From Octopus vulgaris (Eukaryota), in the NCBI GenBank assembly GCA_951406725.2, contig OX597819.1, positions 90,210,001-90,274,000 on the forward strand: a stretch of DNA of 64,000 nucleotides, written 5' to 3'. Each line of letters begins with the position of its first letter. The stretch's first letter is position 1. Shown here in pieces: positions 1-63,587 of the stretch. The notes under the pieces were generated by a model that saw nothing but the letters and a program-made list of their open reading frames with translations, searched no databases and was not told the origin of the DNA. The position numbers and the translations under genes are program-made.

Positions 1-2160
1 ATAATCTTTATGAAGTTACAAATGATAAATGTTAAGTTGATAAATGATAATATGATAAGTTGCTGAAAGATACCACATCCTCTAAATATAAGGAAACTAA
101 TGTAGAGAGATACTATATCAATGATGAAGCTAAATTCCTCACTAAACATAGTAATATTGATGATAGATTAGAATGCTTAGCTAAGTGAGAAGTGTTTATT
201 ACTTTAAAAGACCATAAGCCCAATTTTCTTCTTGTAGATTGTGAAACCCAGCAAGATCTGAAATTGGGCTAGTAGCTAAAAAGAATACTTAGAAATATTA
301 ATGATACAATTAGGGAAATTACTGGGCTTCAACAATGGAATAACAGATTTACAGTAACAGATTGGTTTAAGAATATCAAGAATAAGGTTAAATTTACCCT
401 CTTTGATATAGACTTTTATCCCTCTATATCTAGATTGCTGCATGATAAAGTTATTGAATTTATTAAATCATATGTTGATATTGACCCTGTAGACCTAAAT
501 TTTATCAGGTATGTGAGGAAAGCACTATTGTTCAATAAAGGATTATCATGGGTAAAAAAGTTGCATAGCAGTGAACTATTTGATGTATCTATGGGGTCAT
601 ATGATATTGCTTATATCTGTGATCTTATGGTTTTATCCATATCAAACACATTGAGATATAGATACCCATCTCATGACGTTGGCCTATAACCATGATGACA
701 GTTTGGGCATTTCCCATGGGTGTGATGGTAACACCCTTGATAGATTTAGAAGGCATCTAATTCCTACCTTTTATAATTTAGGACTTAAAATTACAGATGC
801 TACTAATCTCTCAATAGTTGATTATTTAGATGTTTCTCTAGATTTAAATTCCTTGTATAAACCTTTCCATAAGCCTAATGAGAAACTCGCATATATACAT
901 AAAAAATCTTGTTACCCTCCTTTAGTATTTAAAAACCTGATATTAGTAACAGAGTGTTTAACCTCTCTTCTTCTAAAGAAATTTTCGAGAAAGCTGCCCC
1001 TTATTATAACAAGGCCCTAGCCGATAGTGGCTTCAAAGATACATTAATATAAATCCCTCTAATAATAATCAAAATATTAATAATAGTTCTAGTGGCATCA
1101 AAGATAAAGTTGTACATAACCACTCTAGTATTAATCAGGATAATAAGAAAACTAAAAGTAGGTCAAGGAAAAATTTTTGGCTCCTTCCTCTCTTTTCCGT
1201 TAATATAAAAATTAATATTGGTAAAAGATTCCTGTCTCTCCTAGATAAATATTTTCCAGCCCCTCACAGATACTGGTAAATATTTAATAGGCATTCTGTG
1301 AAATTATCATATTGCTTCTGCCCCAATATGAAGAGTAGCATTACCCGTGATCAATACGAAGAGCCTGAATCCAGTTGCAACTGTCAAGACCCAGGATCCT
1401 GTCAACTTGACCAACGATGTATGACTAAATCTATTGTATATGAGGCAGAAGTTACTGCAACCCTGAATAATAATACAACTGATAAGAAGACTTATATTGG
1501 ATTATGTGAAGGTCAGTTTAAAAATTGCAATGCCAATCACATAGCTTCCTGACATAGAGACAAAAGTAAAGTTCCTAAGTTGGCTAGCTGTGGACTTTGA
1601 AAGATAATGACGCACCACATGTGATTAAATGGAAAGAAATTGAGAAATCCATACCTCATGTGAATGGATTGAATAAATGTAGATTTTGTTTGGCTGAAAG
1701 AATGCAGATCCCGTTCAGCTCTAAGATTCCTAACTCTCTATTGATCTCCAGGTCAGAAATTTTCAGTGGTTGCATGCATATGAATAAATATATTTTGAAG
1801 AATTGAAAAATTTTGCTTATTTGTGACTGACTTGATATCTTTCCAGCTTTATCATTTAAGGTCTAAGGAGGATAGATCTTTTACCTTTTTACTTTATACT
1901 TTTTGAATTTTAGTTTTTGTTTTCTGTTGTTTATTGTCTGCATTTTCTGTATGCTGCCTTCTCAGTTTTTTTGCATTTCTTCTATTATTCAATTTCTTTA
2001 GTTCGTTATGATATGTTGTTTGCACCTGAAGAATAGGTTTGAGTTTTCACAACATATGAAACTATTAGTAGCGCTTTAATACATGTATTGTGATCTTTAA
2101 ATAAATAATAATTATCTCTCACCAGATGGAGTACTTTTTTTGTTGAGTTTTCTAACATGG
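1..2160 (+). mobile_element. Degraded Penelope-like retroelement (RT + GIY-YIG endonuclease + 3' pLTR), cut by the window start
   Basis: Frameshifted ORF pieces: FDVSMGSYD..CDL, HDDSLG (YRDDGL-like), DYLDVSLDL..YKPFHKPNE, C-x-C/C..C then IVYEA..TYIGLCEG (GIY-YIG), and C-terminal SRSEIFSGCMH. A hammerhead motif follows at 2022. Confidence 0.88.
2022..2074 (+). ncRNA. Type I hammerhead ribozyme motif (degenerate) in PLE pLTR
   Basis: gcac-CTGAAGA-ataggtt..aacatat-GAAA-ct att ag-TA-gcgc. The core is intact, stem III is ACT/AGT and the cleavage triplet is GUA. Stems I and II each have one mismatch. Confidence 0.65.
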
Positions 2161-12195: not shown

Positions 12196-12329
12196 AAGCT
12201 GAAAGTCTGATAACAGCTGCTCAGTACCAGTCCCTTCCAACTGAACATATAAAAATCATTTACATCATCAGCGTTTTAACATCCACTTTTCAATGCTTTC
12301 TTGGTTCAGATGTATATATATATAAACAA

Positions 12330-12377
12330 TTGCAGTGAACAGGTCGCAGCCTCAAAGCGACGAAAATATTTTGGCAA
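12330..12377 (+). ncRNA. Candidate hammerhead variant with G3-C8 core
   Basis: ttgca-GTGAACA-g-gtcgc(9 nt)gcgac-GAAA-atatt-t-tggcaa. Perfect stem II and palindromic AATATT stem III. Confidence 0.5.
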
Positions 12378-12515
12378 ATTAAATTTTAATATTGAAGTGA
12401 ATCTAACGGATTTTGTGTGTTTTTAAATGGCTTGTAAACACCTTCCACACTGCAATTATTTATATTTCAGCACACAACCTCAGATCAGGTCACTTGCTAT
12501 GCAAGTACATCTCCG

Positions 12516-50413: not shown

Positions 50414-50516
50414 ATTTATTATTTTCATACAAGAATGTTGTTGACAGTGACTTTGGCTTAGCTGGCCGAAACTTCAAAGTCACTGTCAACAACATTTTTG
50501 TATGAAAATAATAAAT
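50414..50516. repeat. Hairpin with 42-bp arms containing the 3' half of a hammerhead
   Basis: Arms are 50414-50455 and 50475-50516, with one G-T. The centre reads ggc ttagctg gcc-GAAA-ctt ca aa-GTC-actgtc. Confidence 0.8.
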
Positions 50517-50579
50517 AAATATATATATTTATGTATTTGGTTTTTCAAGATTCTTGATGTGAAATCATGTGTTGAAACT

Positions 50580-50945
50580 GATATTGTTATTCTTGGGGAT
50601 GGTCATTTTTTGCCAATTAAACACACTATATATTTGGTCTTCACTTCAGCTTTATTATTATTATTATTATCATTTTAGTTCCTTTGTGTCAAATCTCTTT
50701 TGTCACATATTTTGTGACCTTTTCAATGACCTTTTATCCCACATGTTTCCTCTTGTTCTGCTTATTCCATTTTGTCAAAAATGGAATAAGCAGAACATAG
50801 GATAAAGGGTTGTTGAATAGTTCACAAGATGTGTAATGAAAGAGCTTTGACAAAGAAACTAAAATAATAATAAAGCTGAAGTGAAGACCAAATATTTAGT
50901 GTGTGTTTAATTGGCAAAATATGACCATCCCCAAGTATCACAATA
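50580..50945. repeat. Imperfect fold-back of about 365 bp with U3-A8 hammerhead-like motifs in both arms
   Basis: cttggggatggtcat/atgaccatccccaag and gttctgcttattccatttt/aaaatggaataagcagaac. Motifs lie at 50688-50730 (-) and 50809-50851 (+). Confidence 0.8.
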
Positions 50946-51324
50946 TATGTATGTATCTATCTATCTATCTATGTGTGCTTGGGTTTGTCTCCCCTCACTG
51001 CTTGACAGCCAGTGCTGGTTTGTTTACATCCCGGTAAGAAACTGATAGAATAAGTACCAGCTTTAAAAGAATTAATTCATTCAACTAAAACCCTTCAAAG
51101 TAGTGCTCCAGCTTAGCTGCATTGTATGTTAAAGAGTTTGTTTCCTAACTACATAGCTCCAGGTTCAGCTTCATTGCATGGCACCTTGGGTAAGTGTCTT
51201 CTATTATAGCCTCAGGCTGACCAAAGCCTTGTGAGTGGATTTGGAAGATGGAAACTGAAAAAAGTCTGTGTATGTCATATATATATATATATATATGTGT
51301 GTACATATACGCAGTGCTATGCGT

Positions 51325-52340: not shown

Positions 52341-53240
52341 AAGTAAGGTCCTGGAGATATATAATCTTCAAACCCAGTTTCTCTTGTAAGTTATAGTCAT
52401 TTCTTTTTGTCAGTAATAGTTTTGAAAAATACACGAACACCACACAATTTCATTTTCTCTCCCTTCTTCTATATCTGAGAATGTTTACATTTGTAAAAAT
52501 TATCAATACAAAGATGATAATTTTCTGCAGTAACACTATCTTTAGCATGTGTATAATTACAATATTTGTATTTACCCTCCATTTTTTATTGGTTCACTAT
52601 TAAAATCCTTTGTTTAGGAAGAAAATTTTCTTATTTCAGAGATGTACTTGCCAGGCAGGTGATTTGATCTAAGAATGTGTGTTGAAACTGAAACAATTAC
52701 AGAATGGAAGATACATATTAGCTATTCAAAAATACACAAAGATTGTATATACTTTACCTAAATGTTTATTATTTGGTGTCCTCTCAGCAGAATTGCATCA
52801 GTGAACAGTATGCAGTTGGTGCGACAAAAGTTTTAGCGCCAAATCTGAGTGATGTTAACAGTCTTTGTGTGTTTTCAAATGGCTGATATGTGTTTTCCAC
52901 CCTGTAAAAGTTTGTTAGTTTGGGTAAATATACATATTCAGTAATAAGACACTCAATGATCAGAGATTAAACCAACTGAAATATAGTGTCTGCTAATCTT
53001 GTAAATATATACTTTAAAGATGAAATTAATAGTCTAAAGTTTATTGTGGATCTTGAAATATTTAATCAATAAATCTATATATTTCTAGGTAATTTACAGT
53101 CTCTATTACCTAATAATTCATTTAAAATACTCTTTCAAAATACTAATAGCTTGGCTAAAACATTTTGTTACCTCATTATAAATGCTATTTTAGTTTTGTT
53201 ATGTGCGTAGGAAACTCATTATAATTTCCAGTAACTTATT

Positions 53241-55399: not shown

Positions 55400-57640
55400 C
55401 CTTCAACTTTTACCATTTTTGCTACACTCTCTGGATACCTATCCCCACTGTTAATTAAGTCACCTAAGTAACAGAAGCTATCATCTACTGTATTTATCAG
55501 TGTGTAAGACATACTCTCACATAAGTTGCTTTACAAGCTTACATTGTGTAAAAAAAAAAAAAAAATTAATGATTTTTCACTCACTCATACACTTGGTATC
55601 CCATCCATAATATGGTCTCATTAGATGCATTACAATGTTTTATGACATTTAAGAATAAAAAAAGTGTGTCATATGCTGACATATATGGTATTTTTAAGGA
55701 GTTTTTTGGGCATTTAATTGTATGTATCTCTTGTGAACTCTTAGTCTTCACTGTTCCCATGCATCTTCTACATATGAAGTGTACCTTATCTGTTAGTCTA
55801 CCTCTGATCCTGCTATAGCCTTTATCCATAGTTTTAAAAAGTTGCACCAGATGGAATTCTGTCCTATTACTTTCCTGCAAATTGGGAATGACCATTTTCC
55901 TGATGTTAACAGGCTACTATTTTCTCTTTTATTTACTTTACTAATACTTTAGTCTTTGTTAAGTTAAGTATGAAGCCTTTCAGTTCTAGATTTTACTTCT
56001 ACTGTTGTAAATTTTGTGCAGATTCTGCCTTAAGTAGGTCATCAGTAGAGTAAAGTTCCAATGGACAGCTACTCTAAAACAACTCTGTTATAGTTTGGAA
56101 GGCTATAATGAATGAATGGGAGAAGGCTGAGGATAGAGCTTTGATGTATCCTCATTTGAATCCTAAATTTATTGTTGAACTCTTATCTTGCTGTCTGCAT
56201 TTCTGTACAGGGCTTGTATTGCTCTCACAAGCCAACCTCCCGACCTCAGAGTCCAGCAGATCACAAAGCCATGAACCTTCAAAGTGCTTCACTAAGTCAT
56301 CAAATGCCTGTTACTCCTGGCTAAATACTTCTTCTGCAGTTGCTTCACTAAGAAGGTGGTATCAGTAGTGCTTCTCCCAAGTACAAAGTTCCACTGCATT
56401 TCATTTAGTTTAATTTTCGTCTTCATTATTTAAGCTATAACTCTTTCTGTAATTTTCATACCCCGGTTCGATAGCTTGATATGTCTAAAACTACACCTCT
56501 CTAAAGCATTGCCTTTGCCCTTATAGCAGTTGACAATAATGTTGCTTTGCCAGTTATTAGGTATGGTGTCTTCCTGAATCATCTGATTGATTATCATAGA
56601 GACTAACCTATCCGCTGACATTTTAAGCATTTCAGTGGTGATTCCTGATACACTGTTTTCTTCATTTAGCAACCTCTCTTAATAGCACTCCCACAACTCT
56701 TTCTTTTCAGCACTAGTAAGGGCAAGAATTCCACTGTCATTACAAATACACTTCTCTCCACTGTTGTTGCACTGTTTCTGGCACACCGTTTTGCAGCACA
56801 GAAGGACCTAATGATCAATGTAAAATGTGAGTGAAGAGTGATAGTGTTAAGAATGAAGGAAGGATGTCAAGTGAAGTGGCTTGGAAGGAAGATTACTAGT
56901 ATCACAGAAAAAGATAATGAAATATGTAGTTCTACCTTCCTTTAAATATAGTAACAGAATACTACAATTAGGCTACTAGTGGAGCAATCAGTGACTGAGA
57001 GATGAGGAAAGGTGAGAAAGACTTGAGGAAATCTAGCAAGGTGCCCAGTTGTGTATATACAATTATGCTTCTCAGGAACTGGATATTACCAATCATCCTG
57101 GTTCTTTGTCATCTTCTCTGTGACATTCAGAGTCCTAGGATCAGCATTCACTATTTCTTTCTGTAAGCAATCAGCATTTCATTATGCATCTGTCCTCATC
57201 TGTATACATCACATGACTATACTGGCACACAGTCTTCTTTCTTTTACATCTGATTTTTTATATCCAGTTTTTCTCTCAACACATTTGTACTTTGTCATTC
57301 ATGCACACTGACATTGCATATCTAGTGGAGCATGCTAGCATCCTTTCTTTCTAGTTTTCGCATGCCCACTGCAATCAGGGCCCATGTCTCACAACTACAT
57401 ATTATTGTTATTTGTACACAAGTAATATATAATCTGCCTTCCACTCTGAGAGAAAGCTTTTCTGAGAGAAACAGTGGCAATAACTCTCTAAAGTTTCTCC
57501 AGCATGTTCTTATACTAGTAACCATACTTTCAGAGCATTCTCTTTCACTATTAATTAGGTCACCTAGGTAACATAAACTAACTACTCTTTCTAAGCATCC
57601 TTCTTTGCAGTTAATAAGATATATTTTCTTTATTCTCTTA
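55400..57640 (-). mobile_element. Old, fragmented RTE LINE copies
   Basis: SGITTEMLKMS..NIIVNCYKGKGNALE..TERVIA, RGRLTDKVHFICRRC and FRELLPL..VEGRLY..ETWAL are homologous to the RTE ORF at 31670-33313. Confidence 0.8.
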
Positions 57641-57908
57641 GTAGGTGTGTGTGTGTGTATTTATGCATGTATGTGTATCGTCTTAATTTTCACTTCTCAG
57701 TTGTCATATGGGTCAGACAGGATTAGTTAAGACAGATTTTCTATGGCTGAATGCCATACAAAATACCCTTCCTGTGGTCATGGTCAACACTCACTTGTTT
57801 CAAAACAAGGTAATATTTCCCTATGGCCGGATATATTTTCATGGAAGATTGGTAATGTGTATGGATGCATATGTTCACACATATATGCATGTGTATATAT
57901 AAATATAA

Positions 57909-59026: not shown

Positions 59027-59735
59027 ACATCTCTAGCATGTTCATGGATATTTTTGTATGCCAATGTGTATACATGTAAATGTGTATGTGTGTATGCACA
59101 TATGCATACAGACTGTGAGAAGGAAGATAACTTCCTTCCCAAAGTGCATATAGTCCCTTCCAAGTATACTAAAAGAAAAAAATATTCTTTTAACTTCAAA
59201 TTTTCTGCATGCATGCTCTGAATGCAGTGAAAGATAATTTCTGCATAACCATAACAATTGTTTTGCAAATTCTAATCTGTCATTGGCATGGACAGTTCCT
59301 ACAGCCTGATGAGAGTTTGAATAACTTTTGGATTCAAAACTAGTAGTTATTAACAGTTTGTACAAGAATTTTTATATATTTCTGATTCAGTACTAATTTT
59401 GCCCTTGTATTTTTGTAAGTGCATGTTTTTTTTTTTAGACTATTCTAACCAGAATTCCTATATGTATGCACATGTGTGTATGTTAGTGTGTGTGACCATT
59501 CATGTGTGTGTGTGTGTGCGTGCATGTTAGTTTATCTCTACAGATTTTCTGTAGAATTCAGAGCCAGTATTGAAAGTTATGATGCTTCATTTACAAATAT
59601 GTTTATGTACAGATAAACTTAAAAATGAAAACACACTGCTAACACAAAAGTAGGGTACAATATTGACTTTAATATACTTGGTGGTATATTATAGTGGCAA
59701 AAGTGGTTAAAAGCAGGTGTTATTCAAATTCTTTT

Positions 59736-59824
59736 ACTTCCGACACATGTTTCGAAGATATCACTGGTATTATTCTAAAGGAATAAAATAGTGTAAAACA
59801 ATGTAATCCTCTCTTCAGGGAAGT
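59736..59824 (-). ncRNA. Type I hammerhead ribozyme with long stem II, in fold-back 59707-59937
   Basis: Minus strand reads ACTTCC-CTGAAGA-gaggat..atcttc-GAAA-c atgt-GTC-GGAAGT. Perfect stem I, G10.1-C11.1 pair, GUC triplet and palindromic ACATGT stem III. Confidence 0.85.
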
Positions 59825-60086
59825 GAAGAAATGAAACTCGCCAATAAGACATTCTAATATATATATTGGAATAATACCAGTGATATCTTCGAAACATGTG
59901 TCAGAAGTAAAAGAATTTGAATAACACCTGCGTTTAATTCCATTTAATTATTTATATATATTATACAAAATATTTCACTTAAATCCGAAGTTTCTACCTT
60001 TTTATTTGTGTGATTTTTTGCTTCCCTGGTAACTATTTATATACTTTTCCCATGTTAATTGTTAACAAGGGAAAAATACACACATC

Positions 60087-61518: not shown

Positions 61519-61713
61519 TATATATATTTATAAATGATAAATTATGATAAATACAAGTTTATATTATTTGTGACCTTTGTGTTGGATGTTCCTAGTACAC
61601 TTGGATGCTGAACTGCAACATATCATCAGGGAAACATTTTATTGCATTATGCTACACAGAACATATGCCTGAAGTTCTATGGGTCTGAAGACATACATAC
61701 ATATATATATATG

Positions 61714-61870
61714 TATTGGGTTGGTGCATAATTATTGCGACTTTTTTCAACAAATTTTATTCAACAAAACCAACAACAATATTTCACAAAAACATCTTTA
61801 AATGATGGTCTGACCGTCTGCCAAGCAAATGGAAACAGTTATTGAAGTAGATGGTGAATTTTTTTATGTG
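61714..61870 (+). mobile_element. Mariner remnant (TIR plus transposase C-terminal piece)
   Basis: ta-ttgggttggtgcataattattgcg TIR and a ..TVIEVDGEFF C-terminus. Confidence 0.6.
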
Positions 61871-61888
61871 AGTTTGCATGTTGAAGCA

Positions 61889-63110
61889 TATACTGTTGTG
61901 TCTAGGGAGAGTCATTCTCTTTTAGTGCCTTTTAATTTAACACACTCACCAGTAAAATTTCCACTTATTTCTTTATTTATTTTTCTAAAATTTTCATTGT
62001 GTCTTGTAACCTTTTCAATAGTTTTGACCCTGTCAGTTATTCACACTGCGTTCCTTTTTGTTTGTTTGTGTGCATGTGTGTGGGTTAGTGTGTGTGTACA
62101 TATACACGCATCTATGTATGTAGTGATATGATCAGAAAGATAGCGTTCGAGTATACAGGGGTGCTAGAAAGAAATTAGATAACATTATATGTAATGATAC
62201 CAGTGGTACCTGCCCTTGATATAGAAACAAAGATTGGAATAGGATACAAAGAACTTGTGACGAAGCAAACAGAGTGAACACATGGTATAAAACTGAAAAA
62301 TATCAAGGAGTGATGTTTGTAGATGTCACAGCCCATGGAGAACTCACCCGTAGATTTAGAAAAGCTCTGAAGGAGACCAAACTCAACATTAAGATTGTTG
62401 AAAAGCCAGCAAATTCCATCAGATCACAACTATGTAGGATGTACTCCTTTGAGAATACCATATGTGCCAATGATAACTGCATGGTATGTAGGATTAGCCC
62501 TGGTATTAACTGTAGAACTAGAAATGTAGTTTACTGCATCAGATGCATAGAAGGTGCTTGTAAAGACATGAACATGGCATACATAGGAGAGACATCTAGG
62601 AGCATTGCAGAATGACTAAATGAACATTTGAGACAATATGACAACAAAAGACAGTCATCCATACTCTACCAACATGGAGGCAACCTGGGTCAACTTAACA
62701 TCCGCATCTTATCCACACACACATTCAGACATGCACACACAATGAGACAGAGGTACACACACACATATACAAACACACATACATAAAAACACACAAATAC
62801 CGACACGCAAACACATAAATATGCAGAATACATACATACAAATGTAGACACATACATAAATACATGCATACACACACATATGCATGTATATGCACACACA
62901 CACACACACACACACTAAGCCACACACATGCACACAAACAAACAAAAAGGAATGCAGTGTGAATAATGGACAGTCAAAACTAATGAAAAGGTTGCAAGAC
63001 GCAATGAAAATTTTAGAAAAAGGAAAGAAATAAGTGGAAATTTTACCAGTGAGAGTGTTAAATTTATAAGGTACTAAAAGAGAAGGACTCTCCTTAGACA
63101 CAACAGTATA
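61889..63110 (+). mobile_element. 5'-truncated Penelope-like element (GIY-YIG region) with inverted pLTRs
   Basis: Inverted repeat 61889-62097 vs about 62903-63110. Coding sequence reads C..C..C..CRTRNVVYCIRC..AYIGETSRSIAE*LNEH. Confidence 0.88.
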
Positions 63111-63130
63111 TATATATATATATATATATA

Positions 63131-63541
63131 GGCGCAGGAGTGGCTGTGTGGTAAGTAGCTTGCTTACCAACCGCATGGTTCCGGGTTCAGTCCCACTGCG
63201 TGGCACCTTGGGGAAGTGTCTTCTACTATAGCCTTGGGCCGACCAAAGCCTTGTGAGTGGATTTGGTAGACAGAAACTGAAAGAAGCCCGTCACATATAT
63301 GTATATATATATATATATATGTGCGTGTGTGTTTGTGTATCTGTGTTTGTCCCCCTAGCATTGCTTGACAACCGATGCTGGTGTGTTTATGTCCCCGTCA
63401 CTTATCAGTTTGGCAAAAGAGACCAATAGAATAAGTACTGGGCTTACAAAGAATAAGTCCCGGGGTCAAGTTGCTCAACTAAAGGCGGTGCTCCAGCATG
63501 GCCGCAGTCAAATGATTGAAACAAGTAAAAGAGTAAAAGAA
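63131..63541 (+). mobile_element. SINE family A, full length
   Basis: tRNA-like head (A box tggctgtgtgg, B box ggttcagtccc), CORE-like ccttggggaagt, internal microsatellite and (agtaaaag)n tail. Confidence 0.9.
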
Positions 63542-63587
63542 TATATATACACAGACACATATATATATACATACATGTATATATATG

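Follow-up and report, generated by a model that had tools for sequence, protein, structure and literature searches.

In the window, i.e. the whole stretch of 64,000 nucleotides of Octopus vulgaris DNA analysed here, two inverted copies of a short hammerhead-like motif flank the remnant of a Penelope-like element (PLE). The locus raises the question of whether these motifs are ribozymes with a variant U3-A8 core and, if so, whether such a core is new at the place where PLEs keep their hammerheads and whether it could still cut. We consider it quite probable that a PLE with an endonuclease inserted here in 5'-truncated form and is now dead, and that each of its end repeats holds a decayed minimal type I hammerhead (min-hammerhead or min-HHR); in the parent this motif likely had a U3-A8 core and would have cut as a dimer only.

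Structure of the element

The whole element is a 1.2-kb stub in which inverted pLTRs flank a broken thumb/GIY-YIG remnant. Its features, with the basis of each in brackets, are the following:

61888..62097, minus strand: left inverted pLTR, which repeats the 3' end of the element in inverted form and is 5'-truncated (repeat comparison)
61985..62021, minus strand: left min-hammerhead motif, with a U3-A8 core (sequence and covariance model)
62127..62720, plus strand: remnant of the PLE ORF, with the end of the RT thumb, a C-X4-C-X2-C-X7-C linker and GIY-YIG (VVY...YIGET) (tblastn to P0004)
62721..62916, plus strand: CA-rich low-complexity stretch replacing the C-terminus of the endonuclease and the beginning of the 3' UTR (sequence)
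62906..63111, plus strand: right pLTR, the element's 3' end, finishing in a (TA)n run (repeat comparison)
62980..63016, plus strand: right min-hammerhead motif, with an A3.A8 mismatch (sequence and covariance model)

The direct or inverted pLTRs expected of an EN+ PLE are found at 61888-63111 in the inverted form: compared by blastn within the window, 61888-62097 and 62906-63111 are 89.6% identical over 211 nt, and past the left pLTR a fainter similarity continues in CA-rich sequence up to about 62121. Both ends of the element run out in a palindromic TA run, where a target-site duplication and the repeat itself look alike. A second copy of the unique part of the element was absent from the 64-kb window (blastn). 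In the left flank (61710-61887) we take the sequence to resemble a fragment of mariner type; that of the right flank (63130-63560) presumably resembles a short repeat common in octopus. A terminal-inverted-repeat DNA transposon was also considered, and rejected because the ORF is that of a PLE.

The ORF remnant is 57% identical over 203 aa (tblastn, E 9e-77) to P0004, a protein of Octopus bimaculoides; another relative, P0006, is from O. sinensis. It contains two in-frame TGA stops, at 62217 and 62613, both opposite an Arg of P0004. Of the CCHH motif the CxxC and the first His are kept, and the second His falls in a gap of five residues. Homology to P0004 stops at 62720, where the CA-rich stretch begins, and the C-terminus of the remnant is unrecognisable. 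In full-length homologues a single ORF holds the RT and, downstream of it, the endonuclease; tblastn against P0004 found no RT core between the pLTRs. The Pfam GIY-YIG model matches the relative P0002 (E 2.8e-5), and recognised none of three window fragments. Thus, where the first-pass annotation had announced a bona fide GIY-YIG Penelope element, a GIY-YIG PLE is indeed present, but as a dead, 5'-truncated stub without RT and with a Nematis-type linker.

Decay is also apparent from the CpG content of the element, with 5 where 21.9 are expected; of the 12 transitions between the arms, 6 are of the CpG type. In the history that we propose, the left arm would have been derived at insertion from the element's 3' end, in inverted form; after insertion, CpG decay and point changes would have broken the ORF, position 3 of the right motif and stem II of the left one.

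Two unequal copies of a min-hammerhead

The letters and coordinates first given for the motif in both inverted pLTRs agree with the sequence, and the canonical CTGANGA, noted earlier as absent, is found in neither arm on either strand; two occurrences exist in the scanned region, both in the left flank. The earlier statement that both pLTRs carry U3-A8 holds for the left arm and fails for the right. The left copy has the U3-A8 pair, with stem II down to 3 of 5 bp; the right copy has a complete stem II (5 bp), but its 3-8 position is A3.A8, unpaired. Neither arm is an intact U3-A8 ribozyme. Common to both are a G at 9.1, G.U at 10.1-11.1 (a position that in its canonical G-C form is a CpG site), GAAA, U16.1 and U17. 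The description of stem III as a loopless AATT palindrome and of stem I as 3 bp proved exact for both arms: helix III is a loopless 4-nt palindrome, A-A-U-U, and helix I has 3 bp, within the 2-5 bp expected of a min-HHR. As for the published min-HHRs, an intact version would need a dimer to work, in line with what had been proposed.

Hammerheads of related elements

In metagenome contigs we identified 33 loci coding for relatives. A covariance model, R1, trained only on the motifs of 10 relatives, matched 21 of the 33 at E<0.01, 10 of these 21 being the training rows. The other 12 gave no match at this threshold, and four of them have less than 150 nt downstream. Six of the matches lie upstream on the opposite strand, which is the inverted layout of the window. 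None of 38 pattern matches in genome contigs and none of 15 in viral contigs was a relative, and with 94 nt of the right arm as query the 33 loci gave only a chance match of 14 nt.

As in the relatives, the window's motif lies in the pLTR on the sense strand of the ORF. Position 3 of the right copy follows YIG at 403 nt, that of the relatives at 351-417 nt (17 downstream matches, one of them with E 0.63; YIG found in 14, of which five are near-identical copies), an agreement that may be partly luck since the 403 nt cross the CA-rich stretch and the deletion. Judged from its sequence and position, the motif is of the min-hammerhead type, real, and placed where PLEs keep theirs.

In the 10 aligned relatives, which were chosen as intact (the decayed L007 and L024 being left out) and several of which are related to one another, the 3-8 pair is C-G in seven, U-A in two and A-U in one. 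Pairing at 3-8 holds in 98.7% of cells vs 25-66% when the alignment is slid, and all three pairs of helix I covary. The G at 9.1 is shared by 9 of the 10; G10.1-C11.1 is invariant (10/10), where both arms of the window have G.U. The closest metagenome relative, L005 (38% aa), has U3-A8 and U17, with a helix I of 3 bp and a helix III that lacks a loop. L001, which belongs to the same supported seven-row clade as L005, is C3-G8; C-G and U-A cores thus coexist within one PLE subclade.

Other relatives depart from these forms. L004 has at 1472-1513 (plus strand), 171 nt past the ORF match, a single copy with an A3-U8 core, an 8-bp helix I, a 6-nt palindromic helix III and A17. Decayed hammerheads are found in L003 and L006, in the five near-identical copies L007-L010 and L014, which lost G12 at the CpG closing stem II, and in L024, whose core became C3.A8 through CpG decay. 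The CpG losses in L007-L010, L014 and L024 indicate that CpG decay can mimic core variants.

The parental core

Was U3-A8 the core of the parent? CpG decay as its origin was rejected, neither site being a CpG. With two copies only, in which U3 and A3 are one substitution apart, a parental U3 rests on the logic of pairing and on the relatives; on this basis the parental core was likely U3-A8.

Otherwise, the parent may already have held a dead relic, either A3.A8 or a C3-G8 core with its G8 gone, the U3-A8 of the left arm being an accident of one substitution. The two arms do share A8 and the G.U at 10.1-11.1, and one of them is unpaired. Families of copies with a shared dead core also exist among the relatives (G12 lost in L007-L010 and L014, C3.A8 in L024), and cleavage was dispensable for insertion in vitro, at least in the part of PMC11167929 considered here. 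Against this, a change of G8 to A8 would have occurred here outside a CpG context, and the remaining core, the palindrome of helix III and helix I are intact in both arms; U3-A8 moreover recurs in L005 and in an unrelated stub of the same window. We therefore regard a relic parent as unlikely, though deserving of some weight, and keep to a parental U3-A8.

Is the motif beyond chance?

The motif is AT-rich (23-28% GC), its helices are short and the left copy has no stable fold, all features that a chance match in AT-rich repeat DNA would also have, the family then having no hammerhead, or having it elsewhere. Rfam gave no hammerhead family in the best 150 of 219 matches, those shown being low-complexity noise, and the pLTR sequence covered is that of the two arms. 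Yet among 20000 dinucleotide-shuffled versions of the left arm only one matched a relaxed min-HHR descriptor, whose U3-A8 form matched once in the window and 0.03 times on average in 30 block shuffles; these tests are partly post hoc, since the descriptor was drawn up after the motif was seen. R1, trained independently of the window and run over the whole of it, puts the left motif at the top of its 12 matches (24.3 bits, E 0.0017); the right one comes third (17.2 bits, E 0.093, not significant alone), the E-values being rough. Strand and distance to the endonuclease are, besides, both correct, which makes coincidence very improbable, and a decayed min-hammerhead remains the reading we retain.

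Dimer formation and fate at the locus

In a parent with tandem copies, two motifs of the same sense would swap strands, their 4-nt palindromes pairing as helix III, and each core of the dimer would cut after U17, weakly and probably helped by a protein of the element. In the parts considered here, PMC4209133 reports no in vitro cleavage by one min-HHR alone and weak cleavage by dimers, and PMC11167929 a PLE hammerhead that needed protein to cut; the scheme is consistent with both.

At the locus itself the copies lie on opposite strands, so that a transcript would hold one sense copy and no dimer could form within it. In the predicted fold of the complete element, the other arm is the pairing partner of 36 of the 37 motif bases on the plus strand and of 34 of 37 on the minus strand. 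Crude energies of the strand-swapped dimers, which leave out tertiary terms, are -1.6 kcal/mol for the right copy and +13.6 for the left; the same calculation gave -6.6, -19.6 and -23.7 kcal/mol in three relatives. Since a transcript would have a single sense copy, and this copy is predicted to be held in a long hairpin formed with the second arm, cleavage is not to be expected at this site, and these models suggest that the locus is most likely inert. That it is transcribed and its motif still cuts, by pairing in trans with RNAs from other copies of the family, is hardly credible: helix III palindromes permit intermolecular pairing in principle and copies with a single motif occur in large numbers in animal genomes (PMC4209133, in the part considered), but each copy bears a damaging change, either arm is predicted to be paired to the other, and in the same paper in vitro cleavage was poor even for intact min-HHR dimers.

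Comparison with known systems

The first-pass annotation tied a variant core to the position where PLEs keep their ribozyme. The position is borne out by the spacing and strand of the relatives; the novelty is not, since U3-A8 in pLTRs has been published. In the parts of Cervera and de la Peña 2014 (PMC4209133) considered here, the loopless min-HHR is defined and placed in PLE pLTRs, U3-A8 cores are reported in the Cercyon elements of Schistosoma (about 1,300 matches), pairs of motifs on opposite strands are on record, and the loopless AAUU helix III, the 3-bp helix I and U17 are already described. Among 44 rows of its alignment we counted by hand two with U3-A8, six with G.U at 10.1-11.1 and one with G at 9.1. 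U3-A8 min-hammerheads in pLTRs, and their need for a dimer, have thus been in print since 2014 and are not new here.

The row S. mansoni(4) of that alignment is like the window in its 7-nt U3-A8 core with A7, unpaired 9.1, U17 and 3-bp helix I; both are PLE-linked, with a loopless palindromic helix III. Cercyon differs by its helix III, A-C-G-U instead of A-A-U-U, and by its host and PLE lineage; unlike Cercyon, the window has G at 9.1, G.U at 10.1-11.1 and two decayed copies. The Crassostrea gigas row, also from a mollusc PLE, shares with the window the loopless A-A-U-U, U17, the 3-bp helix I and a 5-bp stem II with a 5-nt loop, but has a C3-G8 core and G-C at 10.1-11.1. Natural covariants from C3-G8 to U3-A8, stated to be active in vitro, were reported by Perreault et al. 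2011 (PMC3088659); in the part of that paper considered here they are given without a tie to PLE pLTRs, whereas the window's motif sits in pLTRs.

The stub itself has published parallels, again within the parts of the papers considered: 5'-truncated EN+ copies with inverted pLTRs are described for Pen2 of Adineta vaga (PMC3846280), and the EN+ PLEs of that paper and of Craig et al. 2021 (PMC8557442) share with the window the ~210-bp inverted pLTRs, the truncated ORF containing stops, the (TA)n at the insertion end, the short Zn-finger linker of Nematis type and the GIY-YIG with CCHH. For octopus PLE hammerheads our search found no paper; supplementary tables might list cephalopod cases, or cases of A3-U8 or G3-C8.

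Other motifs in the window

Three more hammerhead-like motifs were met in the window. At 12327-12379 (plus strand) lies a single-copy, min-hammerhead-like motif with G3-C8, a perfect 5-bp stem II, a 6-nt palindromic helix III and U17, whose helix I is irregular; it is the second-best match of R1 in the window (19.4 bits, E 0.026) and sits between TA runs inside a ~200-bp stub, of which one part is found again at 52632-52740. In the literature searched, G3-C8 was seen in a single paper, as a made variant. A U3-A8 motif unrelated to the element is found at 50684-50734 (minus strand), within the inverted repeat 50414-50946; it has a 5-bp stem II, a 4-bp helix I and a non-palindromic helix III, has lost G12, and scores 13.3 bits (E 0.82) with R1; it is probably the second U3-A8 motif hinted at in the first-pass annotation. 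The motif at 59736-59818 (minus strand) is a canonical C3-G8 type I hammerhead with a 6-bp helix I, an 8-nt palindromic helix III, C17 and an unusually long stem II region (58 nt), in an inverted-repeat stub of 231 bp (59707-59937). Other LINE-like RT scraps occur at 55581-57660 (minus strand).

Placement among PLEs

The linker of the remnant is short, of the CX2-5CxxC form with few residues before the next Cys, as is typical of Nematis; its 4-2-7 spacing, compared by eye, is that of Nematis_C4 and Nematis_Cr in Fig. S2 of PMC8557442. Three other placements were rejected: the Penelope/Poseidon clade, as the linker before the endonuclease is absent in that clade and present here; Naiad, as the endonuclease is C-terminal in the relatives; and Hydra, as CCHH is present.

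The window copy lacks the region between RT motifs 3 and 4, so that this spacer is known from the relatives only. Both motif patterns were found in 12 of 156 stored proteins (P0043, P0073, P0082, P0086, P0094, P0100, P0104, P0112, P0136, P0149, P0155 and P0156), and in all 12 the spacing is 127-130 residues, with conserved ExGLYL and CPxR blocks. L001 and L002, which belong to the subclade of the window, have spacers of 129 and 127 residues. The canonical rows differ: for Penelope and C. remanei, a hand count in Fig. S1 of PMC8557442 gave about 58-60 residues between motifs 3 and 4. In a structure model of the relative P0104 (pLDDT 84), the best matches are telomerases; a PDB sequence search with the profile of the relatives returned two weak RT matches and nothing else. 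To our knowledge, an insertion at the IFD position is absent from canonical PLEs. We tentatively raise the possibility, on balance doubtful, that the stub stems from an undescribed marine clade of PLEs with a C-terminal endonuclease, which would be defined by a conserved RT insertion of ~70 residues at the position of the telomerase IFD and by min-hammerheads freely swapping their 3-8 pair.

The locus adds a probable cephalopod example, decayed, of a U3-A8 min-hammerhead in pLTRs. The G3-C8 and A3-U8 cores would matter for the tolerance of the hammerhead core, each being drawn from few copies or from relatives only. If the clade proposed above exists, it offers a natural series (C-G, U-A, A-U, G3-C8) for asking which core pairs cut as dimers, and the long RT insertion of the relatives would bear on the link between PLEs and telomerase.
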